Origin: an uncultured Chloroflexia bacterium
GTDB lineage: Bacteria > Chloroflexota > Limnocylindria > Limnocylindrales > CSP1-4
Reading direction: 5' to 3'
Assembly: GCA_963760735.1 (NCBI GenBank)
Contig: CAVXEB010000004.1
Coordinates: 1,592,329-1,656,328, forward strand
DNA: 64,000 nucleotides
In this document: one piece after another, positions 29,726 to 62,230 of the stretch
Layout: each line of letters starts with the position of its first letter
Position numbering within the stretch: the first letter of the stretch is position 1
Program-made: the position numbers and the translations under genes
Notes under the pieces: generated by a model
Seen by the model: the letters and a program-made list of their open reading frames with translations, nothing else
The model's database searches: none
Told to the model about the DNA's origin: nothing

Positions 29726-29747
29726 TTGGTTCGGTTTTGGTTCAATC
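29726..29747 (+). promoter_or_regulatory. GGTTCA direct-repeat motif site 1 (TTGGTTCGGTTTTGGTTCAATC)
   Basis: It lies about 35 nt upstream of the Gfo/Idh/MocA ATG at 29779. See the motif finding for the full set. Confidence 0.55.
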
Positions 29748-29778
29748 TGATCGCAGGGGATCGCGACGGGAAGGGGCG

Positions 29779-30909
29779 ATGGAGCATTCAGATGGCGGCC
29801 GCGTGCCGCTCCGGGTCGGCGTCATCGGCTGTGGCCTGGTCGCCCAGGTCATGCACCTGCCCTACCTGCGCGAGCTGTCCGATCGGTTCTCGCTCGAGGC
29901 GATCTGCGACCTCTCGCCGGCCGTCCTGTCGGCCGTCGGGGAGCGGTTCGCCGTTCCGACCCGGGTCGTCCACTGGCAGGACCTGCTCGAGACGCCGCTC
30001 GACGCCGTGGTGATCGCCACCCCGGGATCGCACGCCCAGCAGGCGGTCGCGGCCGCCCGGGCCGGGCTCCACATCTTCGTCGAGAAGCCGATGTGCTTCT
30101 CGCCCGTCGAGGGGCGGGCGATGATCGAGGCGGCGCGAACTGCCGGCGTCACGTTGATGGTCGGCAACATGAAGCGCTTCGATCCGGCCGTCGGCCGCCT
30201 CGCGGAGGAGCTCGCGACGACCGGCGCCCTGCGCCTCGTCCAGGTCACCACCCTCGAGGCGCCGTTCCGGCCCTACGTCCAGCAGTATCCGCTCGCCCTC
30301 CCGGCAGATGACGTCGACGCCGACGGGCTCGCGGCCGCCGTGAGCGCGTCGGACACGGCGCTCGCCGAGGCGCTCCCGGACAGCGACACCGCGACGAGAG
30401 CGGTCTACCAGGCGGTGTTGCTCGACACGCTCATCCACGAGCTGAACCTGCTCCGACTGTTCCTCGGGACGCCGACCGGGGTTCGGCACGCGCGGGTGAC
30501 GAGGGAAGCCGCGACGATCGAGCTCGAGTTCGGCAACGTCACGGCCGTCCTCACCTGGGTCGACCTGCCGGGGATCGCCCGCTATCAGCAGGAGCTCGTC
30601 TTCTACGCGCCGGATCGCCGGCTCCGGCTGAGCTTCCCCTCGCCGTTCCTGCGGAACGCCCCGACCGAGCTGGTCGTCGAGGGCGGCGTTGTCGGCGGCC
30701 CGCGCTCCTGGGCAACCCACGAGGTGGTCGCGTACGAGGAGGCGTTCAAGCTGGAGCTGATCGAGTTCGCCGCCGCGATCTCCGACCGGCGCGAGCCGCG
30801 GACGACCAGCGAGGACGGTCTTGCCGACGTCGAGCTGTGCGTCGCGATCATGGAGTCGATGCGAACGGGCAGTCCGGTGCGTGGCCTCGCGTCGGCGGCT
30901 GCGCGATGA
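29779..30909 (+). CDS. Gfo/Idh/MocA-family NAD(P)-dependent oxidoreductase
   Basis: N-terminal Rossmann (LRVGVIGCGLVAQVMHLPYL) plus family-typical EKPM motif. Confidence 0.85.
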   Translation: MEHSDGGRVPLRVGVIGCGLVAQVMHLPYLRELSDRFSLEAICDLSPAVLSAVGERFAVPTRVVHWQDLLETPLDAVVIATPGSHAQQAVAAARAGLHIFVEKPMCFSPVEGRAMIEAARTAGVTLMVGNMKRFDPAVGRLAEELATTGALRLVQVTTLEAPFRPYVQQYPLALPADDVDADGLAAAVSASDTALAEALPDSDTATRAVYQAVLLDTLIHELNLLRLFLGTPTGVRHARVTREAATIELEFGNVTAVLTWVDLPGIARYQQELVFYAPDRRLRLSFPSPFLRNAPTELVVEGGVVGGPRSWATHEVVAYEEAFKLELIEFAAAISDRREPRTTSEDGLADVELCVAIMESMRTGSPVRGLASAAAR

Positions 30910-31820
30910 CCGTCCGGATCGCCAACGCTCCGGTGACCTACGGCGCCTTCGAGCGCACCGTGGGCCAGCCGGGCGTGCCGACCGCCGACGCCGTCCTCGA
31001 CGCGGTCGCCGACGCCGGCTACGAGGGCATCGACCTCGGTCCGGTCGGCTTCCTCGGCCTCGGCGACGGGCTCCGGGATGCGCTCGCCGACCGTGGCCTG
31101 GCGCTCGCCGGCGGCTACGTCGAGCTGCCGTTCAGCGACCCTGCCCGCCTTCCGGAGGCATGGCGCGAGCTCGACGCGGTGCTCGACGCGTTCGATGCCG
31201 CCGCGTCCATCCAGGGGCCACATCCGCCTCGGCCGACGCTCGCCCACGCGCCGACCCCGGAACGCGCGGCGCATCCCGGCCAGGCAGGCAGCAATCCGTC
31301 GCTGGCAATGAAGCCGGCCGCCTGGTCCGCGTTCGTCGACGGCATCGGCGAGGCGATGGATCGGTGCCGTGCGCGGGGCTACGAGCCGACGTTCCACCCG
31401 GAGCTCGGCACGGATGTCGAGGCCCCGGCCGAGATCGAGGCGCTGCTCGCAGCGACCGAGATCGGGCTCTGCCTCGACACCGGCCACTTCCTCGCCGCCG
31501 GCGGCGACCCGGTCGCCGCCATCGCCGGCTGGGCCCCTCGGATCAAGCAGGTCCATGTCAAGGACGCCCGTCTGGATCGCATCGCCGAGGTCGTCCGGCT
31601 CGACGAGGACGCGGACGCCATCTGGGGTCGAGGCGTGTTCTGCGCGCTGGGCGAGGGAGACCTCGACGTCCCGGGCGTGCTCGAGGCGCTCAAACGTGCC
31701 GGGTACGAGGGCTGGATCGTCGTCGAGCAGGACTCCCTGCCCGGTGATGCGGCCACGTTCGCTGCCGCGGCGCGGGCGCAGCAGGAGAACCGGCGGATCC
31801 TGGCGCGAAGCGGCTACTGA
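30906..31820 (+). CDS. Sugar phosphate isomerase/epimerase (xylose-isomerase-like TIM barrel)
   Basis: ATGA overlap with the upstream gene. The pattern (YEGIDLGP ... GYEPTFHPELGT ... GLCLDTGHF ... VHVKDAR ... GYEGWIVVEQD) fits the AP endonuclease 2 / xylose isomerase-like fold. Confidence 0.8.
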   Translation: MTVRIANAPVTYGAFERTVGQPGVPTADAVLDAVADAGYEGIDLGPVGFLGLGDGLRDALADRGLALAGGYVELPFSDPARLPEAWRELDAVLDAFDAAASIQGPHPPRPTLAHAPTPERAAHPGQAGSNPSLAMKPAAWSAFVDGIGEAMDRCRARGYEPTFHPELGTDVEAPAEIEALLAATEIGLCLDTGHFLAAGGDPVAAIAGWAPRIKQVHVKDARLDRIAEVVRLDEDADAIWGRGVFCALGEGDLDVPGVLEALKRAGYEGWIVVEQDSLPGDAATFAAAARAQQENRRILARSGY

Positions 31821-33235
31821 GCCGGCCGGCCTCCGACCCAGACGGGGTTCGTGAGCGTGAGCAGGTCGCCGTTCGACGCCGTTCCCGTTCGCAGCTCGAG
31901 CCGCCACCACGTCGACGCAACGAGTCCGGGCCGGACGAGACGGGTGGTCCCGGGCTGGCAGGCCTCGAGGGCGATCCTCGAACCGGACGTGACGAACCAG
32001 AGCGTCGCCGGTGCCTCCAGCCCGTCGACGGTTGCCTCCAGATCCACGGGGCCGTCGCCGGGGAGCTCCGAGCCCGGCAGCCCGACCTCGGCTCCATCGG
32101 GGCCACTGGCGCGGAACGACACGATCGGTCCGGACGACAGGAACACGTGCCCGCGCCGGATCCCGTCGAGGATCGCGGCCTCGCTGCGGTCGTCGGCGTG
32201 GACGTGGTTCATCGGCAGGGCCACGTACTCGTCCTCCTCCGCCGAGTGACTGTCCGTCCCCGAGACGGCAGTCGGCCGGAAGCCCGCGTCGAGCAGGTCG
32301 GTCCAGAGGGCGAGCGCGCTGTCGTTGGCGGTTTCGGGGATCGCCCAGCGGCCGTTCCAGACCTCGATCGCATCGATCGTCGAGTAGTCCACGAGCGCGA
32401 AGTCCCAGTGGCAGCCGACGCACCACGGGTCGCCGAATGCGCTCGGGTGATTGATCGAGATCAGGGCGTCCTGACGGTGGGCCTGCTCCGCGATCGTGGC
32501 CGCGCCGCTGCCGCGACCTGCGTTCCGCCAGTCGATCGCCTGGTGGAGCCCGAAGCAGTTCATGTGGCCGTGGAAGGTCGTGACCTCGCTTGCCCGGATC
32601 GGGGTGATCACGTCCGGCCAGCGATCGACCTCGCGATGGTGGCTGATCGTGTTGTGGTCGGTGATCGCCAGGAAGTCGAGGCCGCGCTCGACGGCGCCAC
32701 GGACCCGGTCCTCGACCGTGATCTCGCCGTCGCTGTGCACGGTGTGCGAGTGGAGATCGCCGCGGTACCAGCGAGGACCATCGGCCTCGGACGGACGGCG
32801 GGCCGTGGCTGCCGGAACGACCTCCGCCGGCCGTGGCTCCGTCGTTGCATCGGCGACCGTGGCGGATGCCGCGAGGTGGTACTCGAGATAGCCGGTCTCG
32901 CCGCCATCGTTGAGGATGGACGCGGTCGAGACCACGAGGGCCCAGGTCCCGGGCGGCAGCGGCCCGGCGAGGAGTCCGAGCGTGGCGGCCGATTCCCCGA
33001 CGACGTTCTCGCGGTCCCGCGATGCGACGCCGCGAAATCCGGCGGGATCGAAGAGCGTCACCGACAGCCCGTTCGCCTCGTGCTCGGACCCCATGTCGGC
33101 GGGCTCCCAGCTGAACCGGATGCGAAGCTCGGACGTGCGCTCCGGGACCTCGATCTCGAAGCGAATGTGCTGGTGACGGTCCCGATGGGTCCACCGACCG
33201 CTCGTGTCGAGCAGCGGCAGGACCGCCTGGTCCAT
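31814..33235 (-). CDS. PHP-domain metal-dependent phosphoesterase (CehA/McbA-like) with N-terminal beta domain
   Basis: WYRGDLHSHTVHSDG ... LAITDHNTI matches PHP-domain motifs. The ATG at 33235 overlaps the GH4 stop by 1 nt. Confidence 0.7.
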   Translation of the reverse strand: MDQAVLPLLDTSGRWTHRDRHQHIRFEIEVPERTSELRIRFSWEPADMGSEHEANGLSVTLFDPAGFRGVASRDRENVVGESAATLGLLAGPLPPGTWALVVSTASILNDGGETGYLEYHLAASATVADATTEPRPAEVVPAATARRPSEADGPRWYRGDLHSHTVHSDGEITVEDRVRGAVERGLDFLAITDHNTISHHREVDRWPDVITPIRASEVTTFHGHMNCFGLHQAIDWRNAGRGSGAATIAEQAHRQDALISINHPSAFGDPWCVGCHWDFALVDYSTIDAIEVWNGRWAIPETANDSALALWTDLLDAGFRPTAVSGTDSHSAEEDEYVALPMNHVHADDRSEAAILDGIRRGHVFLSSGPIVSFRASGPDGAEVGLPGSELPGDGPVDLEATVDGLEAPATLWFVTSGSRIALEACQPGTTRLVRPGLVASTWWRLELRTGTASNGDLLTLTNPVWVGGRPAQ

Positions 33236-34581
33236 CAAGCCGCGCCGAACTGTTCCACCAGCGCCGGCTGGCCCGCGAGGTAGCCGTCGAGGATCCGCTC
33301 GGCGACGTTGACCGATGGGACCAGGGGATGGAGCGCGAGCGCCTTGATGGCCATGGCTCGTGAGCCGGAGAGTGCCGCCTCGATCGCCGCCCGCTCGGCC
33401 GCGCGAACCGAGAGGATCAGGCCCTGTGCCTGCAGGGGAACACTCCCGATCGCCGCTGGAACGACCCCGCCCGGGCCGATGATGCACGGCACCTCGACGA
33501 TCGCCTCCTCGTCGAGGAACGGCAGGCTCGAGCGATTGGGAACGTCAAGGATCATGACCCGGTAGCCGTCGCCGTGGAGCCCGTCCACGAGGTTCAGGGC
33601 CAGCGTCCCGTAGTCGCCCGGTCCACGCGCCGCCACGATCCCGGCCATCTCGTCCTCCCGGCCGGTCCACGCCTCCTCCATGTAGTGCGACTCGCGCTCG
33701 GCGTGGGTGCGACGCCAGTCGCGCAGCGCCTCGGCCGGTGAGCCGTGACCCGCGTAGAAGGCGGCCTGCTGACGTTCGAGGAAGGCGGAGCGAACCGTCC
33801 CGGCGTTCATCGCCTCGAGCGCCTCGGCGTTGAAGTCGTAGTAGTAGAGGTACTCGTTCGGGATCATCCCCACCGAGCGGAGCCAGTCCGCACCGAACAG
33901 GCGCCCCTCTTCGAAGGTCTCGAGCCGTTCGCGGTCCGCCAACAGGCCCGGCAGGACGTCCCGCCCGCCGTCGAGGACACCACGCAGCCAGCCCAGGTGG
34001 TTGATCCCGAAATAGTCGAACCACAGCTCCTCGGGCGGCCGGTCGAGGGCACCCGCGACCCGCTTGCAGAGGTCCAGCGGGGCGTCGCAGATGCCGATCA
34101 CCCGGTCGCCCAGGACCCGCCGAGCGGCTTCCGTCACCAGGCCCACCGGGTTCGTGAAGTTCACGAAGGTCGCGTTGGGCGCTCGGCGAGCCACCACCTC
34201 GGCGATCGAGGTGACGACCGGGACGGTCCGAAGGGCGAAGGTGATCCCGCCGGGTCCCGTCGTCTCCTGCCCGATCACGCCCTGGGCGATGGCTGCCGTC
34301 TCGTCGAGAATACGGCCCGCCATGCCGCCGGCCCGAACCGCGCAGTAGACGATGTCGGCACCATCCACCGCCTCGTCGAGGTTGGTCGTCATCGTCACCG
34401 GCGCGGTCGCTCCGAGCTCCTCGGAGATGCCGTCGAGGACGCAGCCGATCCGGTCCAGGCGGCCCTGGTCGATGTCGTAGAAGGCGACCTCGTCGTAGCG
34501 GGTCGCGACCTCGCCGGCGGCGAGGGCTCGGTAGATCACCGGCGTCCGGAAGCCGCCGGCACCGATCAGCGTCAACTTCAT
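33235..34581 (-). CDS. Glycoside hydrolase family 4 (NAD+/Mn2+-dependent 6-phospho-glucosidase / alpha-glucosidase-like)
   Basis: MKLTLIGAGGFRTPVIY ... DIVYCAVRAGG ... FVNFTNPVGLVTEA ... IGICDAPLDL fits the GH4 Rossmann and active-site pattern. Confidence 0.85.
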   Translation of the reverse strand: MKLTLIGAGGFRTPVIYRALAAGEVATRYDEVAFYDIDQGRLDRIGCVLDGISEELGATAPVTMTTNLDEAVDGADIVYCAVRAGGMAGRILDETAAIAQGVIGQETTGPGGITFALRTVPVVTSIAEVVARRAPNATFVNFTNPVGLVTEAARRVLGDRVIGICDAPLDLCKRVAGALDRPPEELWFDYFGINHLGWLRGVLDGGRDVLPGLLADRERLETFEEGRLFGADWLRSVGMIPNEYLYYYDFNAEALEAMNAGTVRSAFLERQQAAFYAGHGSPAEALRDWRRTHAERESHYMEEAWTGREDEMAGIVAARGPGDYGTLALNLVDGLHGDGYRVMILDVPNRSSLPFLDEEAIVEVPCIIGPGGVVPAAIGSVPLQAQGLILSVRAAERAAIEAALSGSRAMAIKALALHPLVPSVNVAERILDGYLAGQPALVEQFGAA

Positions 34582-34587: not shown

Positions 34588-34608
34588 GATTGAACCAAAT
34601 TTGAACCG
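34588..34608 (-). promoter_or_regulatory. GGTTCA direct-repeat motif site 2 (CGGTTCAAATTTGGTTCAATC on the minus strand), ending 6 nt before the GH4 ATG
   Basis: Read directly from the sequence. Confidence 0.55.
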
Positions 34609-34637: not shown

Positions 34638-35927
34638 CTAGAAGCGGATGTCTGCGTCCCGGAGCAGGTCGGCGATCGTCACGGTCTGGCCGCGCTCCAT
34701 GGACGCGTTGGACGCGATGCCGGTCAGGATCGACCATGCGCCGTCGACGTGGCTGGATCGGCGGAGATACGGGTCGTGGCTCGCCGCCGGGTTCAGCAGC
34801 TGGTCGAGCATGACGGGGTCGCCGCCGCCGTGATCTCCTTCGCCTGACCAGACGTCCACCCGCTGCGGCTCCTCGCCGTGGCGGTGAAGAACCGTTGTCG
34901 TCGCGCTGTCGTCGGCGTGATGCCTCGTCCCGCCGAAGATGCCGTGCACGCCGACGTGCCGGTGCGTCAGCTCGCCAGCGGTGCCGGAGAACACGATCTC
35001 GTATCCCTCCCACGGGCTGTAGGCACACAGGGTGTAGTTCATCGAGACGCCGTTTGCGTAGCCGACCTGGACCTGCATCGTGTCCTCGATGCTGATCTCA
35101 CTCGAGAAGATGCAGCGGTCGCGGACGTAGCCGTCCGCGTCTTCCGTCTCGAGATACAGAGGGCTCAGATCCGGGTCGCCTTCGAGGTCGAGGCGATACG
35201 GGCACGGAACGCTCGCCGGGCAGGTGTGACAGCGCTCACCCCGTCCGCTCAGCCCGAGGGATTCGGCCGTGCTCGGGGTGTAGAAGCGACGAGCGCCCAG
35301 CGCCGAGATCGTCTCGGGGTGGGACCCGACCCACCAGTTGACCAGGTCGAAATGATGGGTCGCCTTGTGGACGAGCAGCCCGCCCGACTGATCCTTCCGG
35401 CGATGCCATCGGCGGAAGTAGTCGGCCCCGTGGACCCGGTCGAGGGACCACCGGAAATCCACGGCGGTGATCTCGCCGATGCCGCCGGACACCAGGATGT
35501 CCTTCAGCTGGGTGTGAGCCGGGTTGTAGCGATAGTTGAAGGTCACCGTGATCGAACGGCCGGTTTCCCGCTGCGCGTCGACGATCCTCTTCAACCTGGC
35601 GAGATCGATCGTCATCGGCTTTTCGGTGATGACGTCACAGCCGGCCCGCAGCGCCCGGACGATGTAGGCGTCGTGCAGGTAGTCCGGCGTAGTCACGATG
35701 ATCGTGTCGGGTCGCTGCTCGGCGATCATCCGATCGAACTCGTCGGCCGGGTAGAGGCCGATGACATCCGCACCCCCACCGGGAACCCGGGAGGCAGCCA
35801 GCGCCAGACGCAGCGGGTTGCTGTCGCACAGTGCGACGAGCTCGTTGCCGGCGTCGATCGGGTGGTCGACCAGCGCCTCGCGATACATGGCGTGCCGCGA
35901 TCCCGTCCCGACGATGGCGTACCTCAC
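34638..35927 (-). CDS. Gfo/Idh/MocA-family oxidoreductase
   Basis: MRYAIVGTGSRHAMY ... DTIIVTTPDYLHDAYIVRALRAGCDVITEKPM. Confidence 0.85.
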   Translation of the reverse strand: MRYAIVGTGSRHAMYREALVDHPIDAGNELVALCDSNPLRLALAASRVPGGGADVIGLYPADEFDRMIAEQRPDTIIVTTPDYLHDAYIVRALRAGCDVITEKPMTIDLARLKRIVDAQRETGRSITVTFNYRYNPAHTQLKDILVSGGIGEITAVDFRWSLDRVHGADYFRRWHRRKDQSGGLLVHKATHHFDLVNWWVGSHPETISALGARRFYTPSTAESLGLSGRGERCHTCPASVPCPYRLDLEGDPDLSPLYLETEDADGYVRDRCIFSSEISIEDTMQVQVGYANGVSMNYTLCAYSPWEGYEIVFSGTAGELTHRHVGVHGIFGGTRHHADDSATTTVLHRHGEEPQRVDVWSGEGDHGGGDPVMLDQLLNPAASHDPYLRRSSHVDGAWSILTGIASNASMERGQTVTIADLLRDADIRF

Positions 35928-36880
35928 GTCCGGGTGCCCGGCCGGAGCTCGCGCTGGAAGAAGGCCATGACCTTCTCGTGCATTTCGGGCGTCTCGCGGT
36001 GATCGACGCCCGCCTGCACGAACACCTCGAGGGCATCCCCTGCTCCCGCCACCTCGTACATCGGTCTGGTCACCGCGAGTGCGCGTTCGATGCTCGGCGG
36101 CGGGGTGAGCTCGTCGTCCTCGCCCAGGCAGATGAGCTGCGGCCGGGGCGCCACCATGCCTGCGATCTCCCCGGTCGAGGTGCGCCGGAGCATCCCCGGC
36201 ACGAGCAGGTAGATCCCGTGGTTGTCGTGGGCGCCGAGGTCGACGAGGGTCGCGTAGTCCGCGTAGCAGCAGAGGTGCGCGACCGCCCGGATCCTCGGAT
36301 CGAGCGCCGCATGCCAGTACGCAAGCGTGGAACCGAGCGAGATCCCGAACGCCCCGATGCGCTGCGGGTCGACATCGTCGCGGGACGAGAGATAGGTCAG
36401 GGCCGCGGCCTGTTCCGACACCATCTGACCGATCAGGGACGTGCCGTACCAGATGTGGGCCTTGGCAGCCGCGCTCTCCTCGACGTCGTCGCGATCGCCG
36501 AACGTCGGCATGTCCATGCAGATCGTGACGTAGCCCGCGCGGGCAAGCAGCGGCCCGAACGGACTCAGCAGGTAGGAACGTCCGTCCATCAGCTCGCTGG
36601 CGCCGATCTCATGGCGTCCACCATGCGAGTGCCCATAGAGGATGGCCGCTTGACGACCGATGGCCCCGGCGGGTCGGGTCAGGAAGGCGCGCACCCTGCC
36701 GACACCCTCGAGGTCGAGCTCCAGGCGCTCGAACGCGTAGCCGTCCCGGTCTGCCGCCTCGGCCGAGATGAGTCCGATCCCGGGCTCACGGAATGACAGG
36801 AGCGACGCGAGCTCGTCGCGAGAGATCGCCAATCCGGCTCCCTTGTGCTGCGCCCATCCCACGGGTCGCGATTGAACCAA
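35924..36880 (-). CDS. Alpha/beta hydrolase (dienelactone hydrolase / acetyl-esterase-like)
   Basis: GHSHGG and GISLGS nucleophile-elbow motifs are present. The ORF-track start is TTG 36880, with an alternative GTG at 36862. Confidence 0.7.
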   Translation of the reverse strand: MVQSRPVGWAQHKGAGLAISRDELASLLSFREPGIGLISAEAADRDGYAFERLELDLEGVGRVRAFLTRPAGAIGRQAAILYGHSHGGRHEIGASELMDGRSYLLSPFGPLLARAGYVTICMDMPTFGDRDDVEESAAAKAHIWYGTSLIGQMVSEQAAALTYLSSRDDVDPQRIGAFGISLGSTLAYWHAALDPRIRAVAHLCCYADYATLVDLGAHDNHGIYLLVPGMLRRTSTGEIAGMVAPRPQLICLGEDDELTPPPSIERALAVTRPMYEVAGAGDALEVFVQAGVDHRETPEMHEKVMAFFQRELRPGTRT

Positions 36881-36891
36881 CGATGAACCAC
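36868..36891 (-). promoter_or_regulatory. GGTTCA direct-repeat motif site 3 (GTGGTTCATCGTTGGTTCAATCGC, minus strand), overlapping the annotated start of the hydrolase gene
   Basis: Read directly from the sequence. Confidence 0.5.
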
Positions 36892-36926
36892 GGACGCAAC
36901 GGCTCGCGGGTCGCCACGTCTGATGT

Positions 36927-38123
36927 GTGATACATTACCAGCATGAGCCCCTCGTCGCCCACATGAGGATCGTCCGCCTGCAGCTCCATCCGGTGCGTGT
37001 CACCCGGGAGACGGGTGTCGCGAACGAGCACGTCATCGTCGAGATCGAGACGGACGGCGGGGTTCCCGGATGGGGCGAGATGAGCGACCTCTCGCACCTC
37101 CCGCTCTACCAGTTCGACCTGACGCAGCTGCAGTCCGCGCTGTCGGAGATCCTCGTCGGAGCGGATCCAAGGGCGCTGAACGACATCGAGCGTCGGATGA
37201 CGGGCTTCTATCCCGACGAAGGCCACATGTACAGCCGTTCCGGGCTGGTGCGCCAGGGCGTCGAGCTGGCGCTCTTCGACTGCCTCGGGCGCGCGGACGG
37301 CGTGCCGGTCCATCGCCTCCTGGGTGGAGCGCTGCGCGATCGGATCCCCGTCTGCTACCCGGTGTTCCGTCTCCGCACGACCGATCAGGCGCCGGCGGCG
37401 CTCGACCGTGTCGACGAGAAGCTTCGCCAGGGATTCGACGTCATCCGGTTCTACGCCGGCAGCGATCCTGCCGCCGACCTGGCGTTCATGATGGGCTTCG
37501 CCGACCGGTTCGCCGGCCGGGTCCGGATCAAGTCGCTCGACTTCTCCAACCTGCTCGGATGGCGCGACGCACTCCAGGCGACCGAGCGGCTGACCGGCGT
37601 CACGGACGTGATGCTGGTCGAGAGCGTCGCGCTCCGCGGCGACATCGAGGGCCTCGCGGAGTTCCGGCGCCGCAGCAGGCATCCGGTCTCCGAGCACGCG
37701 CACGGGCAGCGACACGCCTGGCAGCTCCTGCACCAGGGCGCGGTCGACATCCTGAACCTGTCGCCGTACGTCCTTGGCGGGATCCGCCCGACGATCCGAG
37801 CGGCGGCGATGGCGGACGCCGCCGGAGCCAGCGTCCTGCTCGGCACCACGCAGGAGCTCGGCCTGGGAACCGCGGCGGTCGCCCACGTCGGCGCGGTCTT
37901 GGCGGCCCTTCCATACCCGAGCGACAACGTCGGACCGCGTCTCTACACCGCGGATGTCGCGACACCGCCCGTCGAGTACGTCGATGGCCATCTGGTCGTG
38001 CCGACCGGTCCCGGACTCGGTCCCTCGGTCGATCCGTCCCTGCTCGAGAGCCTTCGGTCGAACGGGGACTGGGGCTTCGGGCTCGACCTGGCCGGCGCCG
38101 TCGATCGCACCTTGCCGTCATGA
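36927..38123 (+). CDS. Enolase-superfamily enzyme (mandelate racemase / muconate lactonizing enzyme family; likely sugar-acid dehydratase)
   Basis: The N-terminal capping domain and barrel are recognisable (VIVEIETDGGVPGWGE ... GFDVIRFYAG ...). Confidence 0.75.
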   Translation: MIHYQHEPLVAHMRIVRLQLHPVRVTRETGVANEHVIVEIETDGGVPGWGEMSDLSHLPLYQFDLTQLQSALSEILVGADPRALNDIERRMTGFYPDEGHMYSRSGLVRQGVELALFDCLGRADGVPVHRLLGGALRDRIPVCYPVFRLRTTDQAPAALDRVDEKLRQGFDVIRFYAGSDPAADLAFMMGFADRFAGRVRIKSLDFSNLLGWRDALQATERLTGVTDVMLVESVALRGDIEGLAEFRRRSRHPVSEHAHGQRHAWQLLHQGAVDILNLSPYVLGGIRPTIRAAAMADAAGASVLLGTTQELGLGTAAVAHVGAVLAALPYPSDNVGPRLYTADVATPPVEYVDGHLVVPTGPGLGPSVDPSLLESLRSNGDWGFGLDLAGAVDRTLPS

Positions 38124-41522: not shown

Positions 41523-41569
41523 CGCCGGGAGTGTAGACGGCTGATGTACCAGACTTCTGGCATGCCGTC

Positions 41570-49876: not shown

Positions 49877-49946
49877 GTGCCGACCATCATGGCATATCAT
49901 ACGATGAATTGCGTCTCCATCCGGCCGGTGTGAGGAGGGCTGCGGC

Positions 49947-52434: not shown

Positions 52435-52446
52435 ACTATTGTATGA
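52431..52446. promoter_or_regulatory. Imperfect palindrome CATACTATTGTATG in an AT-rich divergent promoter; candidate GntR operator
   Basis: 5-bp arms CATAC/GTATG around TATT, overlapping the GntR start codon region. Confidence 0.25.
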
Positions 52447-52527
52447 TAGCGTCAGAGACGCCGGAACGCCATCTGCCTCCCGACGGCATCGGGCACGGCG
52501 AGGGCGTCGGCAGGGCGGCCGAAGCAT

Positions 52528-52575
52528 TGGTTCAGATTTGGTCGTTGACTCGAACGGTTCAACTTTGGTTCAATC
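52528..52575 (+). promoter_or_regulatory. GGTTCA direct-repeat motif site 5, extended (GGTTCAGATTT GGTCGTTGAC ... CGGTTCAACTTTGGTTCAATC; core 52555-52575)
   Basis: It lies upstream of the ABC permease operon. Confidence 0.55.
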
Positions 52576-52696
52576 ACTCCCGTCCGTAGAACTCCGATCG
52601 GCCAGGGCGTCGATCTCTGGAGGTTCACAGGCTGGTGGTTCCAGGACCCGAGCATAACCCTCGTCACGGGGTCGATGATCGTCCGCGCCATGGCGC

Positions 52697-54591: not shown

Positions 54592-54663
54592 AGGAGGAAG
54601 GCCCTGAACATCACGACCTACCCATTCGGCGGTGCCAGTCACCAGAGGTGGAGGAGAACTTCG

Positions 54664-56016
54664 ATGCACAGGAAATTGATCGGGTTGGCGACGGCGAGCG
54701 TGCTGCTCGTCACCGCCTGCGGCTCGTCGACCGCGTCACCCACGCCCGCGACTTCGGCCGCAGCCAACCCGGGGAGCGAGGCGCCGGCCGCCAGCGCGCC
54801 GGTCGCCGTCACCAACCTGAACCTTCGCTACTGCTGGGGCGGCGAGGGTGAAGTCAAGGCGATGGAAAAGGTCATCTCGGCCTGGAATGCGAAGAACCCC
54901 GACATCCAGGTCACGGGCATCAGCGGCAGCATCAACACCGAAGAGGTCGCCGCCGCCGTCGCCGGGGGCGCGCCACCGGACATGGTGATCATGTGCGACA
55001 ACGGCGCCGTTGCCGGCTTCGCGCACGACAAGGTGATCATGCAGCTCGATCCGCTCCTGGACTCGATCAAGGCGGACAAGAGCAACATCATCCCGGCGGC
55101 CCTCAAGTGGGTGACGTATCAGGGCGGGCTCTACGGATTGCCATTCGGCCAGGACACGTGGGCGCTCTACTACGACACCGACGCCTTCAAGGCAGCCGGC
55201 CTCGACCCCACCAAGCCGCCGACGACCCCGGACGAGCTCTGGGCCGACGCCGCAAAGCTCACGAAGACGAACGCCGACGGGAGCCTGGCCCGCGCCGGGT
55301 TCATCCCCAACGATCCGGACCCGAACCTTGAGTCGACCTCGAACCTGTTCAACTGCCAGACCTACGACGAGTCGGCCAAGAAGATCACGCTGAACAGCCC
55401 CGAGTGCGTCGCCTGGTTCAACTGGTACAAGAAGTGGTACGACGAGTACAACAAGAACAACGCGATGGTCAACCTCGCCTCCACGCGAACCGGTGGCGAC
55501 GCCGGGCTGTTTATCGCCGGCCAGCAGGCGATGGTGATCATGGGCGAGTGGGAGAACGGCGCGTCGTATCTTCCGCAGACGGCCCCGAATCTCCACTACG
55601 CCACCGCCCCGATCCCAGCGGTCAGCCCGGACAAGTACGGTGCGGCGTTCATCAACGGCAACGCGTTCATGATCCCGACGGGCTCCAAGAACCCCGAGGC
55701 CGCGGCGAAGTTCGGCATGTACCTCATGACCGACGAACCGTCGAAGACGATGTCGCTCCAGAACGCAAGCGTGCCGCAGCTGACGTCGCTCCTGACGGAC
55801 CCGGAGATGCTGGCGATCCCGAACCAGAAGACCTTCCTGGACCTCGTGAACCACAAGGACGCCTGGGTCACGCCGATGATCTCGGTCTACCCGCAGATCA
55901 AGGACGGCCTCGCGAGCGCGCTGAGCGCGGTCCTGACCGGTGGCGCCGACCCGAAGAAGGCGCTCGACGATCTGGCCGGCCAGGTCCAGTCCCAGCTCGA
56001 CGCGAACGGGCCGTAG
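54664..56016 (+). CDS. Extracellular solute-binding lipoprotein (ABC sugar transporter, family 1)
   Basis: The signal peptide has a lipobox (LLVTAC). GGAGGAG RBS. Family 1 SBP sequence pattern. Confidence 0.85.
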   Translation: MHRKLIGLATASVLLVTACGSSTASPTPATSAAANPGSEAPAASAPVAVTNLNLRYCWGGEGEVKAMEKVISAWNAKNPDIQVTGISGSINTEEVAAAVAGGAPPDMVIMCDNGAVAGFAHDKVIMQLDPLLDSIKADKSNIIPAALKWVTYQGGLYGLPFGQDTWALYYDTDAFKAAGLDPTKPPTTPDELWADAAKLTKTNADGSLARAGFIPNDPDPNLESTSNLFNCQTYDESAKKITLNSPECVAWFNWYKKWYDEYNKNNAMVNLASTRTGGDAGLFIAGQQAMVIMGEWENGASYLPQTAPNLHYATAPIPAVSPDKYGAAFINGNAFMIPTGSKNPEAAAKFGMYLMTDEPSKTMSLQNASVPQLTSLLTDPEMLAIPNQKTFLDLVNHKDAWVTPMISVYPQIKDGLASALSAVLTGGADPKKALDDLAGQVQSQLDANGP

Positions 56017-56189: not shown

Positions 56190-58814
56190 ATGACCGAGCT
56201 GCCGGTGGCGGTCGACCTCCGGGTCGAGGGCGTCGTCGATCCGATCGGCCTCGACGAGCTCCGGCCACGGCTCAGCTGGCGCGTCGCGCTGGCCCACCCG
56301 TCCACCCACCAGTCCTCATTCGCCATCGAGGTATCCGGCGATCCGACCGTCGCTCCCGCGGCCGTGGTCTGGTCCCGCACCGACGTCGCAGGCCCGGACA
56401 CCGCGATCGTCTACGACGGCCCACCAGCGGGCTCGCGGGAGCGACGCTTCTGGAGAGTCCGGGTCGCCGACGACCGCGGGGCCGCCGGTCCGTGGAGCGC
56501 GCCTGCGTCCTGGGAGTCTGGTCTCCTCGCCCCCGACGACTGGATCGGTCGGTGGATCGCATGGATCGATCCGGCACGAGCGAGCTGGTCGTCCCGGAGC
56601 CCGATCCTTCGGCGGTCGTTCCGGGTCGCCGGGGCCGCCACCCGAGCGCGGGCGTACGTGACGGCGCTCGGGCTCGTGGAGCTGAGCCTCAACGGCCGTC
56701 GCGTCGGCGCCGACCGGTTGGCACCGGGGTGGACCGATTACCGGCGCCGCATCCAGTACCGAACCAGCGACGTCCTGGACCTGCTCCGACCCGGGGAGAA
56801 CGTCATCGCCGCGCGTCTCGGGCGCGGCTGGTTCGCCGGCGAGGTCGGGGACTTCGGGGCCGAGCAATACGGGGACTTCCCCGCCCTCATGGCCCAGGTC
56901 GAGGTCGACCGCGCGGACGGACGTCGGACGATCGTCGCGACCGACACGACGTGGCGAGCCCATCCGGGGCCGCTCGTCGAGGACGACTTGTTGTTCGGCG
57001 AGACGGTCGACGCGCGCGACGAGCCCACCGGCTGGGACGCGCCGGGCTTCCCGGACGACGACTGGCAGCCGGTCATCGTCCGGGCCGCGCCGGGTGGCCG
57101 ACTCGTCGCCCAGCGGGACGCGGGGGTGCGGATCGTCGACGAGCTGGCGCCCGCGGCGATGACGAGCGTCGCGCCGGACCGCCAGATCGTCGACTTCGGC
57201 CAGAACCTGGCGGGACATGTCCGGATCCGCGCCATGCAGAGCGCCGGGACGACGATCACGATCCGCCACGCCGAGGCCCTCGACGCCAGGGGCGAGCTCT
57301 ACACGGCGAACCTCCGAACGGCCCGGCAGACCGATCGGTACACCTTCGGGGGCAACGGCGAGGAGGTCTTCGAGCCGCGCTTCACCTCCCACGGCTTCCG
57401 GTACGTGGAGATCAGCGGGCTGCCGGAGGGCCTGGATCGCGGTCAGCTGACGGCCCGCGTCGTGAGCTCGATGGGCCCGGCGACGGGGTCATTCGCCTGC
57501 TCCGACGAGCTCGTCAACGCGATCCACCGCAACGTCGTCTGGGGTCTCCGCGGCGGGATCGTCGGGATCCCGACCGACTGCCCGCAGCGAGACGAGCGGC
57601 TCGGCTGGACGGCGGACGTCGCGGCGATGGCCCCGAGCGCCCTCTTCCTCGCCGACACGGCGCCTGTCTTCGAGAAGTGGCTCATCGACCTCGCCGATGC
57701 CCAGCCGCCGTCCGGCGCGTATCCGGACATCGCGCCGCGCATCGGCGTGACCGGGTCGGGCAACGCCGGCTGGGCGGACGCCGGCGTGGCTCTGCCGTGG
57801 GTCATCCATCAGCGGACCGGGGACGGCCGGGTCATCGAGCGGCAGTACGACTCGATGCGGCGGTTCGTCCGGTTTCTCGAGGCCGACCAGGTCGGCGGTC
57901 TCCGCCACGGTGGTCGGTACGGCGACTGGCTGGCGCTCGAGACCCCGACCGGCCTCGAGCTGATCGGCACGGCGTACCTGACGCGGTCCGCAGCGCTCTT
58001 CGCCCGGATGGCCCGCATGCTCGGCAACGACGAGGACGCGGACGCGGCCGCCCGGCTTGCCGCCCGTTCGCGGGCGGCCTTCCGACGTCGGTTCGCGCCC
58101 GGCGGCGTGCTCCGCGAGGAGACCCAGACCGGCTACGCCCTGGCCCTCGGGTTCGAGCTCCTCCCCCGCAGCGTCAGGTCGGCGGCCTCGAGCCGCCTCG
58201 CCGACCTGATCCGGGCGGCAGACGATCATCTCCTGACCGGGTTCCTGGGCACGGGGCTCGTGCTGGCGGTCCTGTCCGACCACGGACACCACGAGCTGGC
58301 CGCCAGGGTCGTCCGTCAGGAGACCTATCCCGGCTGGGGCTTCGAGGTCCGCCAGGGGGCAACGACGATCTGGGAGCGCTGGAATTCCTGGACTCCGGAG
58401 GAGGGGTTCGCCGACCCGGGAATGAACTCGCTCAACCACGCCGCCCTGGGCTCGGTCGCCGACTGGCTCCATGAGCGCCTGGCCGGTCTCGCGCCAGGGG
58501 CGCCCGGCTATCGGACGATGCTCGTCCGCCCGGGACCGGCAACGGGCATCGAGTGGGCGCGCGCGACGCACGAGTCGGCCCATGGACTGCATTCGGTCGA
58601 GTGGGCGGCCGACCGGCAGCGCCTCGAGGTCATCGTCGAGGTGCCACCGAACACGTTCGCTGACATCATGGTTCCCGAGGGGGGACGAGCGCTCACCCTC
58701 AACGGGCGTCGCCCGCGAACCGGCGCCGCGGGTCTCCTGCGGATCGCCGGGTCCGGCACGGAGGGCCGCCTCACGCTCAGCTGCGGCCGCCACGTCGTGG
58801 AGGTCGCGCGCTGA
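56190..58814 (+). CDS. Alpha-L-rhamnosidase (glycoside hydrolase family 78)
   Basis: N-terminal LRVEGVVDPIGLDELRPRLSWRV; the (alpha/alpha)6 catalytic-domain motifs are IVGIPTDCPQRDERLGWTADVAA. Confidence 0.85.
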   Translation: MTELPVAVDLRVEGVVDPIGLDELRPRLSWRVALAHPSTHQSSFAIEVSGDPTVAPAAVVWSRTDVAGPDTAIVYDGPPAGSRERRFWRVRVADDRGAAGPWSAPASWESGLLAPDDWIGRWIAWIDPARASWSSRSPILRRSFRVAGAATRARAYVTALGLVELSLNGRRVGADRLAPGWTDYRRRIQYRTSDVLDLLRPGENVIAARLGRGWFAGEVGDFGAEQYGDFPALMAQVEVDRADGRRTIVATDTTWRAHPGPLVEDDLLFGETVDARDEPTGWDAPGFPDDDWQPVIVRAAPGGRLVAQRDAGVRIVDELAPAAMTSVAPDRQIVDFGQNLAGHVRIRAMQSAGTTITIRHAEALDARGELYTANLRTARQTDRYTFGGNGEEVFEPRFTSHGFRYVEISGLPEGLDRGQLTARVVSSMGPATGSFACSDELVNAIHRNVVWGLRGGIVGIPTDCPQRDERLGWTADVAAMAPSALFLADTAPVFEKWLIDLADAQPPSGAYPDIAPRIGVTGSGNAGWADAGVALPWVIHQRTGDGRVIERQYDSMRRFVRFLEADQVGGLRHGGRYGDWLALETPTGLELIGTAYLTRSAALFARMARMLGNDEDADAAARLAARSRAAFRRRFAPGGVLREETQTGYALALGFELLPRSVRSAASSRLADLIRAADDHLLTGFLGTGLVLAVLSDHGHHELAARVVRQETYPGWGFEVRQGATTIWERWNSWTPEEGFADPGMNSLNHAALGSVADWLHERLAGLAPGAPGYRTMLVRPGPATGIEWARATHESAHGLHSVEWAADRQRLEVIVEVPPNTFADIMVPEGGRALTLNGRRPRTGAAGLLRIAGSGTEGRLTLSCGRHVVEVAR

Positions 58815-58816: not shown

Positions 58817-60163
58817 ATGGCGACCCGATCCGTTCCAGGGTCCGGCGCCACACCCTGGGAGCGCCCCGCGCCGGCGGATCGGGCCGCGCGCAGCGAGGCT
58901 ATCGAGCGGCGCATCCGCAACGCAGCCGGACGCGTCGCCGACCCGGGGCTCCGCCGTCTCCTGGAGGGGACGCTGCCGAACACCCTCGACACGACGATCG
59001 TCGCGGGTGGCACGGATGCCCGCCCCGACACGTTCGTCGTGACCGGGGACATCGACGCGATGTGGCTGCGCGACTCGACCGCCCAGGTCTGGCCGTATCT
59101 CGCCTCGATCCGCGACGACGCCGGGCTCGATCGTCTGATCCGGGGGGTGATCCACCGCCAGAGCGACCAGATCCTGCTCGATCCGTACGCGAATGCATTC
59201 CGGTCCGACGACGAGCCGAGCGAGTGGGCGAGCGACGAGACCGACATGCGGCCGGGCGTGCACGAACGGAAGTGGGAGCCGGATTCGCTCTTCGCGTTCT
59301 GCCGGCTGTCCGCCGGGTATCGGAGCGCCGGCGGCACGCTCCGACCGTTCGATGCGGCCTGGCGCGGCGCCCTCGAGTCGGTCCTCCGGACGCTGCGGAC
59401 GGAGCAGCGACTCGACGGCGCCAGCCCGTACCGGTTCCGCCGGCCGAACGGCGATCCCACGGACGTCGTGCCGAACGACGGCCGCGGCGCGGCGACGCGC
59501 CCGAACGGAATGGTGCACGGCGCCTTCCGGCCTTCCGACGACGCGTCCGATCTGCCGTTGAACGTCCCGATCAACCTCGCCCTCGCGGCCGCCCTCGACG
59601 CGGTGGCTCCACTCGTCGTTACGATCGGCGATCACGAGGCTGCGAAGGAGGCCCGCTCTCTGGCCGCGGAGATCCGCGCCGGCGTCGCCCGCGATGGGAT
59701 CGTCCGGCGGGGATCGGCGTCCGTCTGGCTCTACGAGGTGGACGGACTCGGCGGGCAGGTCCGGATGGACGACGCGAACGTGCCCAGCCTCCTGTCCCTG
59801 CCATACCTCGGCGCCTGCGACGTTGCCGACCCGACCTACGTTGCGACCCGCAGCTGGGTCCTGTCGGCCGCCAACCCATGGTGGTTCCAGGGCGGGCTCG
59901 GAGACGGCATCGGGTCGCCGCACACGGGCCCGCGGCGGATCTGGCCGATCGCCGTGGCCATGCGCGGCCTGACCGCGACCTCCGACAGCGAACGGGTGGC
60001 TGCCGCTCGCCTGCTCGGCACCTCCCACGCGGGAACGTATCTCGCCCACGAGTCCTTCGACCCCGACGACCCGACGCGGTTCACCCGGTCATGGTTCGCC
60101 TGGGCCAACTCGCTGGTCGGCGAGTTCCTCGAGCGCGCGGCGCTCGACGGCCTCCTGGGGTAG
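58817..60163 (+). CDS. GH125-like (DUF1237) metal-independent alpha-mannosidase family protein
   Basis: GDIDAMWLRDSTAQVWPYL and the overall (alpha/alpha)6 pattern; 2-nt gap after the GH78 stop. Confidence 0.55.
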   Translation: MATRSVPGSGATPWERPAPADRAARSEAIERRIRNAAGRVADPGLRRLLEGTLPNTLDTTIVAGGTDARPDTFVVTGDIDAMWLRDSTAQVWPYLASIRDDAGLDRLIRGVIHRQSDQILLDPYANAFRSDDEPSEWASDETDMRPGVHERKWEPDSLFAFCRLSAGYRSAGGTLRPFDAAWRGALESVLRTLRTEQRLDGASPYRFRRPNGDPTDVVPNDGRGAATRPNGMVHGAFRPSDDASDLPLNVPINLALAAALDAVAPLVVTIGDHEAAKEARSLAAEIRAGVARDGIVRRGSASVWLYEVDGLGGQVRMDDANVPSLLSLPYLGACDVADPTYVATRSWVLSAANPWWFQGGLGDGIGSPHTGPRRIWPIAVAMRGLTATSDSERVAAARLLGTSHAGTYLAHESFDPDDPTRFTRSWFAWANSLVGEFLERAALDGLLG

Positions 60164-60188: not shown

Positions 60189-60992
60189 TCAGCCGACCCG
60201 CTTCAGCTTGCCGGTCCGCTTGGCGTAGTGCTCCGCACGACCGAAGGCCCAGAGCCCGATCGGGATGTAGACGAAGCCCATCACGATCAGGGGCCAGACG
60301 TCATCCCACAGCTGGCTGACGGGCGTCCCCTCCACGATCCCCTTTCGGACGCCATCGAGGACGTAGGTCGCAGGCGAGAACTTCGAGAGCACCTGCATCC
60401 AGCCGGGCAGGATCGTGACCGAGTAATACACGCCGCTGACGAGCAGCAGGCACGACTGCAGGACGAACGTCATCTGCGCCCCGCGCTCCACGTAGAGGAG
60501 GGGCAGGATCGCGGCGATCACCCCGATCCCGACGAAGCTGAACGAGCCGAGCGCCATGAACACCGCGGCGGTCCCCGGGTTCGCCTTCGACAGGTCGATC
60601 GCCGGGAAGAAGAGCACGAGGACCGCGAAGATCACCACCGTGTGGATCAACCCGTAGACGATCGCGTAGGACACCTGGCCGATGAGCCGCGACGAGCGCC
60701 GGATCGGCGCCATCATCGTGTACTCGAGCGTGCCCTCCCAGCGCTCGACCGCGATCGTCTCCGCGATCCAGCTGAACACCACCGAGAGGTAGTTCCAGAA
60801 GATCGCCCCCACCATCAGGGACAGGACGAGCGCCGCGCTGCCCTGGTCGACCCCGATGAGCGAGATCGAGAGCGCGCTCGCGACGGAGTAGACGAGGAAG
60901 GCGACCTCCCACGCCCAGGTCCGCCGGGTCAGGAAGAAGTTCCGCTCCATGAAGGCGTACGACGCCCGGAGCTCGTGGCCGAGCGTGGTCAT
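60189..60992 (-). CDS. ABC-2 type exporter permease
   Basis: Six TM helices; the ABC-2 family pattern overlaps the ATPase gene by 4 nt. Confidence 0.8.
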   Translation of the reverse strand: MTTLGHELRASYAFMERNFFLTRRTWAWEVAFLVYSVASALSISLIGVDQGSAALVLSLMVGAIFWNYLSVVFSWIAETIAVERWEGTLEYTMMAPIRRSSRLIGQVSYAIVYGLIHTVVIFAVLVLFFPAIDLSKANPGTAAVFMALGSFSFVGIGVIAAILPLLYVERGAQMTFVLQSCLLLVSGVYYSVTILPGWMQVLSKFSPATYVLDGVRKGIVEGTPVSQLWDDVWPLIVMGFVYIPIGLWAFGRAEHYAKRTGKLKRVG

Positions 60993-61861
60993 GGCGTGCC
61001 CTCCTCGGCGTCCTCGGAGATGTCGTCATCGAGAGAGCGGCCGGTCCAGGCCATGAACACGTCCCAGAGCGTCGCCTCACGGCCGAGCCGGCTCGATGCC
61101 GATGCGACCAGACCCTCGGGCGTGTCGCTCGCGACCACGCGCCCGCCGTCGATGATCGTGATCGCGTCGGACAGGCGCTCGGCCTCGGCGAGGTCGTGCG
61201 TGGTCAGCACGATCGTCGTGTCGTGGGTGGCACGGAGCTCCTCGACGAACTGCTGGACGTCGAGCTTCGAGCGCGGATCGAGCCCGGTCGTGGGCTCGTC
61301 CAGGAGGAGGAGGGTCGGACTCGTGAGGAGCGCTCTGGCGATCGCGACCTTCTGCTGCATGCCCCGGCTCATCTGCTCGATCGGCCGATCCACCCGATCA
61401 CTGCCGACGTGGAGGCGCTCGAGGATGGCGTAGACGGTCCGCCTGGCCGTCGGCATGTCGAGGCCGTAGGTCCGCGCGGCGAAGGTGAGGTTCTCCATCG
61501 GGCTGAGCTTCTTGAAGAAGGCCGCATCGACGCTGACCCGGTTGATCAGGCGCTTGACCCGCAGCTCGTCGCGCTCGATGTCGAGCCCGAACACCTCGAC
61601 CCGGCCCGCATCCAGGGTCAGGAGGCCCGCGATCAGCCGGATCAGGGTCGACTTGCCGGACCCGTTGGCGCCGAGGACGCCGTGGATGTCCCCGCGCTCG
61701 AGACGCAGGGACACGTCCGTGACGGCGTCGACGGGCGCCTGATGGCGACCGGTGACGAAGGTCTTGAAGACGTGGTCGACGAGCAGCGCGGGAGGCTGGG
61801 GCGCCCCCGGCGCGATGGGCGGCTGTGACGAGAGTGGGCGTGCGATCGGGTTCAGGGTCAT
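60989..61861 (-). CDS. ABC transporter ATP-binding protein
   Basis: Walker A GANGSGKST, signature MSRGMQQKV and Walker B LLLLDEP. Confidence 0.85.
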   Translation of the reverse strand: MTLNPIARPLSSQPPIAPGAPQPPALLVDHVFKTFVTGRHQAPVDAVTDVSLRLERGDIHGVLGANGSGKSTLIRLIAGLLTLDAGRVEVFGLDIERDELRVKRLINRVSVDAAFFKKLSPMENLTFAARTYGLDMPTARRTVYAILERLHVGSDRVDRPIEQMSRGMQQKVAIARALLTSPTLLLLDEPTTGLDPRSKLDVQQFVEELRATHDTTIVLTTHDLAEAERLSDAITIIDGGRVVASDTPEGLVASASSRLGREATLWDVFMAWTGRSLDDDISEDAEEGTP

Positions 61862-62208
61862 GGTGGTCTCGGGGCGTGCAGGGCGACAACCGGAGGCGGC
61901 GCGCGGACCGATCGTCCCGGATCCAGCGGCTCACAACAGAGAAGCCGCGGGTCTGGCCCACGGCTCCCGGGTTTCCATGTGGCGGCGACGCCGCCGCGCT
62001 ACCCCCGAACGACCGACGCTCGGGTGCGGATCTCAACGCTCTCGTGGGCCTGCGCGCATCGAACTGCGGTCTCCATCCGATGGCCTCACGTAGCGGAATC
62101 CATCCGACGGTCCATCTTTGGTTCAGACGGACGCCGAAGGCCGATTGTAGGGATGGTCCCGGTCCGCGTCAAAGTGAGCGGCAGGCAGACCCCTTTCACT
62201 TGACTAGT

Positions 62209-62230
62209 CTGGTTCACTTTTGGTTCAATG
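62209..62230 (+). promoter_or_regulatory. GGTTCA direct-repeat motif site 6 (CTGGTTCACTTTTGGTTCAATG), overlapping the annotated ATG of the P450. A half-site (TTTGGTTCAGA) lies at 62117-62127.
   Basis: Read directly from the sequence. Confidence 0.55.

Follow-up and report, generated by a model that had tools for sequence, protein, structure and literature searches.

Direct-repeat GntR operators and the GGTTCA repeat

Operators of HutC-family GntR regulators are normally palindromes (NyGTMTAKACNy), and direct-repeat operators have been described for the GntR regulators NanR (TGGTATAW), NagQ (TGGTATT) and FarR (TGTATTAWTT) (PMC4494728). In the case of NanR, each dimer takes one repeat and the dimers cooperate (PMC8012715). 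Here we analysed a stretch of 64,000 nucleotides (nt) from an uncultured bacterium of the Limnocylindrales (Chloroflexota; contig CAVXEB010000004.1), referred to below as the window, with a G+C content of 69%. Its carbohydrate cluster carries a head-to-tail repeat, GGTTCA-N5-GGTTCA, in front of several operons. With a probability of roughly 0.75, this repeat is the operator of a HutC-type GntR encoded inside the cluster itself, at 41648-42442(-); we infer the binding from the way in which repeat and regulator travel together. A sequence-only reading of the window had likewise taken the motif for a transcription-factor operator defining one regulon within the cluster, which its position and conservation bear out. 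The same reading had placed the cognate factor elsewhere in the genome, and on this point we differ: a GntR+UTRA gene lies within the span of the motif and tracks it across lineages, and its recognition helix is common to unrelated GntRs that carry the repeat.

Both strands of the window were searched with the pattern GGTTCANNNNNGGTTCA, and hits with at most one mismatch were kept. Seven sites were found, five exact and two with one mismatch, while shuffling the window 200 times gave 0.145 on average and never more than 2. The consensus is GGTTCA-N3-TT-GGTTCA(A/C)T, with a period of 11 bp in 7/7 sites. All seven lie within 29.7-62.2 kb, ahead of genes, and none was found at this threshold in 1-29.7 kb. 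The sites, together with one degenerate match, are:

29728-29744 (+): two-unit site GGTTCGgttttGGTTCA, one mismatch (unit 1 is GGTTCG); promoter of the operon of Gfo/Idh/MocA and the xylose-isomerase-like TIM barrel
34591-34607 (-): two-unit site, exact; promoter of GH4-PHP
36873-36889 (-): two-unit site, exact; promoter of the alpha/beta hydrolase and Gfo operon
41572-41588 (-): two-unit site ending GGTTCACT, exact; distal promoter of the operon of GntR1, a metallo-beta-lactamase fold protein (MBL) and SDR
52556-52572 (+): proximal pair of the importer promoter, exact; ABC permeases, solute-binding protein (SBP), GH78 and GH125
62109-62125 (+): auxiliary two-unit site GGTCCAtctttGGTTCA, one mismatch, without a -35 of its own; about 100 bp 5' of the P450 promoter site
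62211-62227 (+): two-unit site, exact; promoter of P450
42436-42452 (+): degenerate site GGgTCAtggttGGTaCg, three mismatches, tentative; overlaps the GntR+UTRA start codon antisense and faces PfkB

The six sites listed by the sequence-only reading are real, and 6/6 lie directly 5' of a gene or operon according to the pattern search and the Pfam gene map. Some of its details needed correction. Its consensus was written with an N4-TT spacing, which would mean a 12-bp period; the actual period is the 11 bp given in its own title, and the literal pattern GGTTCA-N4-TTGGTTCA had no match in the window because the spacing was one base too long. Its extra half-site at 62117 turned out to be the complete auxiliary site GGTCCAtctttGGTTCA, which is located in the divergent region between the ABC-2 exporter and P450 and is conserved in the related loci L001, L002 and L052. 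Additional upstream half-sites had been noted at the importer; the extra units are indeed there, but they form a second pair, GGTTCA-N5-GGTCGT, at 52529-52545, which overlaps the -35 hexamer TTGACT. The importer promoter is thus a four-unit array at 52529-52572(+), where GGTTCA-N5-GGTCGT runs directly into TGACT-N5-GGTTCA-N5-GGTTCAAT.

The position of the repeat relative to promoter elements is also constrained. In the site alignment a TTGNNN hexamer (TTGACT twice, TTGCGT twice, TTGATA and TTGCTC) stands 4-5 nt 5' of unit 1 (3-5 nt in relatives). The end of unit 2 forms TTCAAT or TTCACT at a spacer of 17-18 nt from this hexamer, and a TG two bases ahead of TTCAAT produces an extended -10 pattern (TGgTTCAAT). 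Judging from this geometry, the repeat would be located inside the core promoters, with unit 1 in the spacer and unit 2 on the -10. The 29728 site follows a -35-like TTGCGT at 29718-29723 and precedes a likely ATG at 29779 with a GGAAGGGG Shine-Dalgarno sequence. At the GH4 promoter the -35 TTGATA lies 4 nt 5' of the site and the ATG (34575) 7 nt after TTCAAT; the encoded N-terminus, MKLTLIGAGG, is the usual kind of start for the GH4 NAD-binding fold. Among the GH4 genes of the window and of related loci, 31 distinct promoters place the start codon 8-12 nt past unit 2, too close for a Shine-Dalgarno sequence to fit in between, so the GH4 transcript is probably leaderless. The 36873 site has TTGCGT as its -35, and 10-15 nt separate its unit 2 from a GTG or ATG start codon; at the P450 promoter TTGACT lies 5 nt 5' of the site and the GTG at 62237 is 7 nt after TTCAAT. 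Because the repeat sits between a good -35 (TTGACT, TTGCGT, TTGATA) and the transcription start, its position fits a repressor site and not an activator box that replaces the -35. A sigma-70 promoter scanner called no promoter in 29-45 kb, since it demands an A at the second position of the -10 that is absent in TTCAAT.

Homologues of the cluster proteins were found in metagenome-assembled genomes (MAGs) of Candidatus Limnocylindrales (Chloroflexota) and in soil metagenomes, and the organism is not an actinomycete. At orthologous promoters the sites recur across many MAGs and contigs of this order, a check that the sequence-only reading had proposed. In L001-L004, whose GntR1 homologues show 67-78% identity, the repeat is kept before SBP, permease and P450, and in L001 before GntR1 as well, while the intergenic flanks diverge and the motif stays. 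All 7 orthologous importer promoters aligned share an identical core from TTGACT to GGTTCAAT. In the same alignment the upstream unit GGTCGT and the -35 that it overlaps (as GGTCGTTGACT or nearly so) are kept in most orthologues, with L084 as the exception, and the first unit is kept in the closest relatives only. Orthologous P450 promoter sites occur in L001, L004 and L043, and L060 has orthologous sites before Gfo1 and at the alpha/beta hydrolase-Gfo operon. Scanning 185,579 species genomes (one per species) with the exact pattern returned at least 120 stretches. About 17 of these come from Limnocylindrales or 'Chloroflexia' MAGs, and in those listed the site precedes GH4, permease, P450, alpha/beta hydrolase or Gfo1; most of the others are chance hits in unrelated taxa.

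Several stretches listed from elsewhere are unrelated to the GntR regulon. In L030 (labelled Anaerolineales) an inverted pair of GGTTCATTTTTGGTTCAAT surrounds a hairpin at 4245-4301, and tandem 11-bp arrays occur in L071 (339-2840, Legionella MAG), L077 (1311-1350, Lachnospiraceae MAG) and L100 (3263-3320, Aureispira MAG).

Compared with the described systems, the closest likeness is to NagQ and FarR/MngR of the HutC family, and it covers domain architecture and operator layout. They share with this locus a GntR winged helix-turn-helix (wHTH) joined to a UTRA-type domain, a local sugar-catabolic regulon and tandem direct repeats beginning (T)GGT/TGT in place of the family palindrome (PMC4494728). 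Here the half-site is GGTTCA, the 11-bp phase is strict with two units per promoter, unit 2 coincides with the -10, several promoters are apparently leaderless and the lineage is Limnocylindrales. E. coli NanR, with its (GGTATA)3 operator, is also a GntR-family repressor reading direct repeats of a GGT-initiated hexamer in the promoter region, and it likewise joins several operons into one small regulon, its several dimers binding cooperatively (PMC8012715). NanR differs in its FCD domain, in its three repeats about 8-9 bp apart (GGTATA with 2-3 nt spacers) bound by one dimer each, and in a 32-residue N-terminal extension that gives cooperativity, compared with two units 11 bp apart and a UTRA domain here. 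The locus would therefore work like NanR without being a member of its type. DasR and NagR (YvoA) are the closest solved structures and are sugar-responsive repressors whose half-sites start with TGGT, but they bind 16-bp palindromic dre sites symmetrically, and their helix aligns as SRTTVRQAL against ARNTLRRAL here. The GGTTCA case would then belong with NanR, NagQ and FarR, set apart by its half-site and lineage, both new, by the strictness of its 11-bp phase and by the fusion of operator and -10. A literature search for GGTTCA operators returned only primer sequences and nuclear-receptor papers.

The GntR+UTRA regulator and its recognition helix

The protein encoded at 41648-42442(-) matches PF00392 (3.8e-18) and PF07702 (2.5e-33), a GntR wHTH followed by UTRA, which is the architecture of the HutC subfamily. 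Its nearest solved structures are DasR and NagR/YvoA (E about 6e-23 over residues 26/35-253) and also PhnF, and its recognition helix reads GVARNTLRRAL. Homologues with 73% (L132), 65% (L131), 64% (L129) and 60% (L130) identity are encoded divergently beside GH4. In these four loci the repeat lies in the very short intergenic region shared by GH4 and the regulator gene, PfkB follows in L129-L131, and the gene tables of L129-L132 contain no other regulator. L007 and L081 likewise have the site between GH4 and a divergent GntR_UTRA gene, or overlapping the regulator start. Directly 3' of the GntR_UTRA gene, the site is found in the window (at 41572-41588, 60 nt past the stop codon), L009, L039, L084, L119 and L208, and the 920-kb contig of L001 has PfkB pointing left and, divergent from it, GntR_UTRA followed by the site and GH4. 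A site over the regulator start facing PfkB was also observed in L039 and L140 (one mismatch each) and in L145 (none), where the window has its three-mismatch match. Operator and regulator gene are thus co-localised across lineages, as would be expected of a HutC repressor and its operator. A further sequence in the PfkB/GntR_UTRA region, ATTGTATGRCCTGG, was considered as a separate operator and rejected; it is better read as the TACAAT -10 of the regulator gene.

A second group of motif loci (L033, L055, L058 and L075) comes from MAGs labelled Pseudomonadota, Alphaproteobacteria, Proteobacteria and Hypericibacter among the matches listed. Each of these loci contains aATGGTTCAnnnTTGGTTCAAT twice, in divergent orientation and about 90-140 bp apart, and in L033 and L055, the two loci scanned with Pfam, the copies flank a GntR+FCD gene; the GntR identity in L058 and L075 comes from sequence alignment. 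The neighbouring operon in L033 and L075 encodes a FAA hydrolase, an alpha/beta hydrolase and an amidohydrolase, and this repeat-carrying FCD group is probably proteobacterial. These FCD GntRs share 24-26% identity overall with the GntR+UTRA protein of the window and have an unrelated effector domain, yet the recognition helix is common to both. The helix regions are:

Window GntR+UTRA: PERELGARLGVARNTLRRAL
Second-group FCD GntRs: PERALAEQYGLARNTLRRVL
Window GntR1: VSITPVRDAV
Window GntR2: VSRTVVREAT

The helix G(V/L)ARNTLRR(A/V)L is found within the window only in the 41648-42442 protein. When all loci collected were searched for RNT[LV]R[RK], every GntR frame with a match adjoined a site, and the two other matches were not GntRs. 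In a reciprocal test, metagenome contigs were chosen by the peptide [EAT][RQ][LYF]G[VL]ARNTL alone (75 loci, 300 kb), and these contained 44 motif sites at one mismatch or less, compared with 0.67 in shuffles. Among the Limnocylindrales-type peptide loci the site was present in 23/30, the remaining seven being contigs of 1.0-3.9 kb. In the FCD group with QVPPERALAEQFGLARNTLRRVLK an exact site lies 157 nt 5' of the helix codons (6/6 loci). The FCD group with LPAERELAAQYGVARNTLRRAV has aATTGGTTCAcTAccGGTCYAATAt at 147-149 nt (mostly 148) 5' of the helix codons in 13/13 loci, with 1-2 mismatches as against 3-5 in control windows of the same loci. No site was found for ARNTLRR proteins with a different helix 2 (SEAEL/TEAEL; L168, L171 and L180).

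DNA-binding domain and operator are therefore correlated, the ARNTLRR helix and the repeat occurring together in both UTRA-type and FCD-type GntRs. In these comparisons the motif is one that travels with an ARNTLRR-type DNA-binding domain, held in the window by the 41648-42442 protein only. A broader proposal, which we put forward tentatively and think somewhat improbable as it stands, is that the ARNTLRR winged helix constitutes a specificity class across GntR subfamilies, with UTRA or FCD, that reads head-to-tail GGTTCA at an 11-bp phase, the operator being additionally fused with the -10 in Limnocylindrales.

Competing readings of the repeat

Several observations weigh against assigning the repeat to the GntR+UTRA protein as its operator within core promoters. 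The site is head-to-tail and not the palindrome of the HutC family, for which the exceptions FarR and NagQ keep membership of the protein family open. TTCAAT lacks the usual A at -10 position 2, and the promoter call is one of geometry, not of mapped 5' ends. In the window, the regulator's own promoter has just the three-mismatch site at 42436-42452; such matches are common by chance in control windows, and this one alone is not significant. The three GntR genes of the cluster always co-occur in the closest relatives, so that the assignment leans on distant loci and on the helix correlation. Finally, the motif may occur more widely in the source genome than in this cluster.

The best surviving alternative, which we nevertheless regard as unlikely, is that the binder is one of the two FCD-type GntRs of the cluster, GntR1 (40794-41522(-)) or GntR2 (51664-52404(-)). 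In the window a GGTTCA site is found upstream of each of them, GntR2 is divergent from the four-unit importer promoter, and the other GntRs that carry the repeat are of the FCD type. GntR2 was indeed the candidate first favoured, by analogy with NanR, and was rejected in view of its repeat-free homologues and its own palindrome: homologues with 68, 62, 50 and 44% identity showed no site at one mismatch or less within 17-21 kb. The palindrome, CATAC-TATT-GTATG (CATAC-N4-GTATG), lies inside GATACATACTATTGTATGATA at 52428-52448(+) and is also present in L032, L049, L122 and L040, with similar ATCATAC...GTATGAT-like boxes in the distant homologues L125-L127, and it is probably the operator of GntR2 itself. 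GntR1 also has a conserved palindrome at its proximal promoter (41528-41552(-)), where the 12-bp CTGATGCATCAG (CTGGTACATCAG in the window, 41541-41552) is followed by a TACACT -10 near the GntR1 start codon. This promoter is conserved in L001, L002 and L004; the 41572 site is present in L001 and absent in L002 and L004, whose GntR1 genes have no GGTTCA site of their own. Furthermore, the helices VSITPVRDAV and VSRTVVREAT differ from the ARNTLRR that tracks the motif, and in L129-L131, GH4/GntR_UTRA loci that do bear the motif, no FCD GntR is close by.

A second alternative, to which we give very little credence, is that the block is mainly a promoter signature, an extended -10 and spacer recognised by RNA polymerase or a dedicated sigma factor. 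It would explain why the distances to the -35 and to the start codon are fixed and why TGgTTCAAT can be read as an extended -10, and three ECF sigma genes are encoded in the first 21 kb of the window. But a promoter needs no repeated hexamer, the auxiliary copies at 62109 and 52529 have no -35 or -10 context, other promoters of the cluster use a canonical TAnnnT -10 (TACACT, TACATT, TACAAT), and at the FCD-GntR loci the repeat lies 5' of Shine-Dalgarno leaders, in both orientations of the divergent region.

The least probable reading, to which we assign next to no weight, is that of the sequence-only reading, in which the repeat is a PHO-box-like array and its binder a response regulator of the OmpR/PhoB or GlnR type with its gene elsewhere. 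Two direct repeats about one helical turn apart do fit such a box, GTTCA is similar to GTTCACC, the core of actinobacterial PHO boxes, which are read by PhoP of the OmpR/PhoB family at the same 11-bp period, and no response regulator was found in the window, as had been noted (no Response_reg domain among about 70 open reading frames scanned with Pfam), which would make such a factor remote. The likeness to PHO boxes and GlnR sites goes no further than the period and the GTTCA core. However, PHO boxes belong with a response regulator of another protein family and replace the -35 at activated genes, whereas the repeat here lies 3' of a good -35, covering the spacer and the -10 without overlapping or replacing the -35, and tracks GntRs with one recognition helix in unrelated lineages, including loci picked by protein pattern alone; moreover, the targets are sugar genes of a single cluster, the source lineage is Chloroflexota and not Actinomycetota, and the gene tables of 13 related loci list no Response_reg gene, so that no co-conserved response regulator was found there.

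The operons of the cluster and the proposed switch

Gene products were assigned by Pfam scans of about 70 open reading frames of the window, and those of the cluster (GH, glycoside hydrolase) are:

29779-30909 (+): Gfo/Idh/MocA
30837-31820 (+): xylose-isomerase-like TIM barrel
within 31814-33487 (-), open reading frame as scanned: PHP-domain protein
33235-34575 (-): GH4
34638-35927 (-): Gfo/Idh/MocA
35924 to about 36860 (-): alpha/beta hydrolase
36927-38123 (+): enolase-superfamily protein (MR_MLE)
to 39060 (+): PhyH
39096-39890 (-): SDR
after SDR, to about 40750 (-): metallo-beta-lactamase fold protein (MBL)
40794-41522 (-): GntR+FCD, GntR1
41648-42442 (-): GntR+UTRA (HutC-type), 264 aa
42547-43416 (+): PfkB
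after PfkB (-): GH2 and a zinc alcohol dehydrogenase (Zn-ADH)
48953-49900 (-): DHDPS-family protein
49947-51677 (+): IlvD/Edd-family protein
51664-52404 (-): GntR+FCD, GntR2; galactonate-repressor-like (DgoR-like) in the JGI annotation
52697-56016 (+): two ABC permeases and SBP
56190-58814 (+): GH78 (rhamnosidase)
58817-60163 (+): GH125 (mannosidase)
60189-61861 (-): ABC-2 exporter
62237-63418 (+): P450

The sequence-only reading had divided the cluster into at least two regulons on the ground that GH78, GH2, ilvD and dapA lack the motif. For GH2, ilvD and dapA this holds at two mismatches or less, and GH78 also has no site of its own, but it follows the SBP gene in the same orientation and probably belongs to the importer operon. 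The division itself stands, as the ilvD/dapA part appears distinct. In addition to the GntR2 palindrome at 52428-52448, a related box, ATATCATACGATGAAT, lies at 49894-49909(+) in the 46-bp divergent region between the DHDPS and IlvD genes and resembles half of the GntR2 box, which suggests that the sugar-acid genes (DHDPS, IlvD/Edd) form a separate GntR2 regulon.

Two further regulatory regions of the cluster were observed alongside. The promoter of the MR_MLE gene, (C/T)TGATGTGTGATACATTAC, is conserved in the window (36920-36938(+)), L001 and L002, and its ATG lies 6 nt after TACATT; this transcript is probably also leaderless, with a distinct candidate operator of its own. In the importer leader, a 45-nt block, GGAGGTTCACAGGCTGGTGGTTCCAGGACCCGAGCATAACCCTCG, at 52619-52663(+) is conserved in six orthologous leaders and holds GGTTCA and GGTTCC 15 nt apart. 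Searched as RNA, this leader matched no Rfam family and 1/16 of its pairs was compensatory in RNAalifold; the block could be more operator units or a leader RNA. Outside the sugar cluster and unrelated to it, the three ECF-type sigma genes (3352-4194(+), 15187-15741(+) and 20371-20934(-)) lie beside genes for Kelch-repeat and beta-propeller proteins, and a tRNA gene is located at 21265-21336(+).

DasR, NagR and most HutC regulators occlude RNA polymerase and are released when an effector binds the UTRA domain. In each target promoter, the 17-18 nt between a TTGAC-like -35 and the extended -10 contain unit 1, and unit 2 (TTGGTTCAAT) overlaps the -10 itself. If the GntR+UTRA protein acts in the same way, it would exclude RNA polymerase when bound there. 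Binding of a sugar-derived effector to the UTRA domain would then release it and switch on six operons together: GH4-PHP, the two Gfo/Idh/MocA operons, the FCD-GntR/lactonase/SDR operon, the ABC importer with GH78 and GH125, and P450. One dimer may cover both units, or one dimer may take each unit as in NanR; at the importer and P450 promoters, where additional units are present, more than one dimer may bind cooperatively. The ancestral compact module, in which the regulator is paired with GH4-PfkB and often with an ABC importer, suggests an effector derived from a glycoside, namely a sugar or sugar phosphate from the imported compound.

The system described here would be a local sugar switch of an ordinary kind, rare only in the head-to-tail arrangement of its sites, and its value lies in useful annotation knowledge and not in a new principle. 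It would add one more case to the small set of direct-repeat GntRs, and the link between ARNTLRR and GGTTCA could help motif prediction for GntR regulators. If the specificity class tentatively proposed above is true, the tandem binding mode would belong to the DNA-binding domain and linker and not to the dimerisation domain, and in Limnocylindrales a single short element would combine the roles of promoter and switch across an entire glycoside-utilisation cluster. For the Limnocylindrales, an abundant soil lineage without a cultured model, the analysis offers a candidate regulator-operator pair and a first regulon, in which GH4, Gfo/Idh/MocA proteins, TIM-barrel isomerases, the rhamnosidase/mannosidase importer operon and P450 would be tied into one co-regulated glycoside-utilisation unit.

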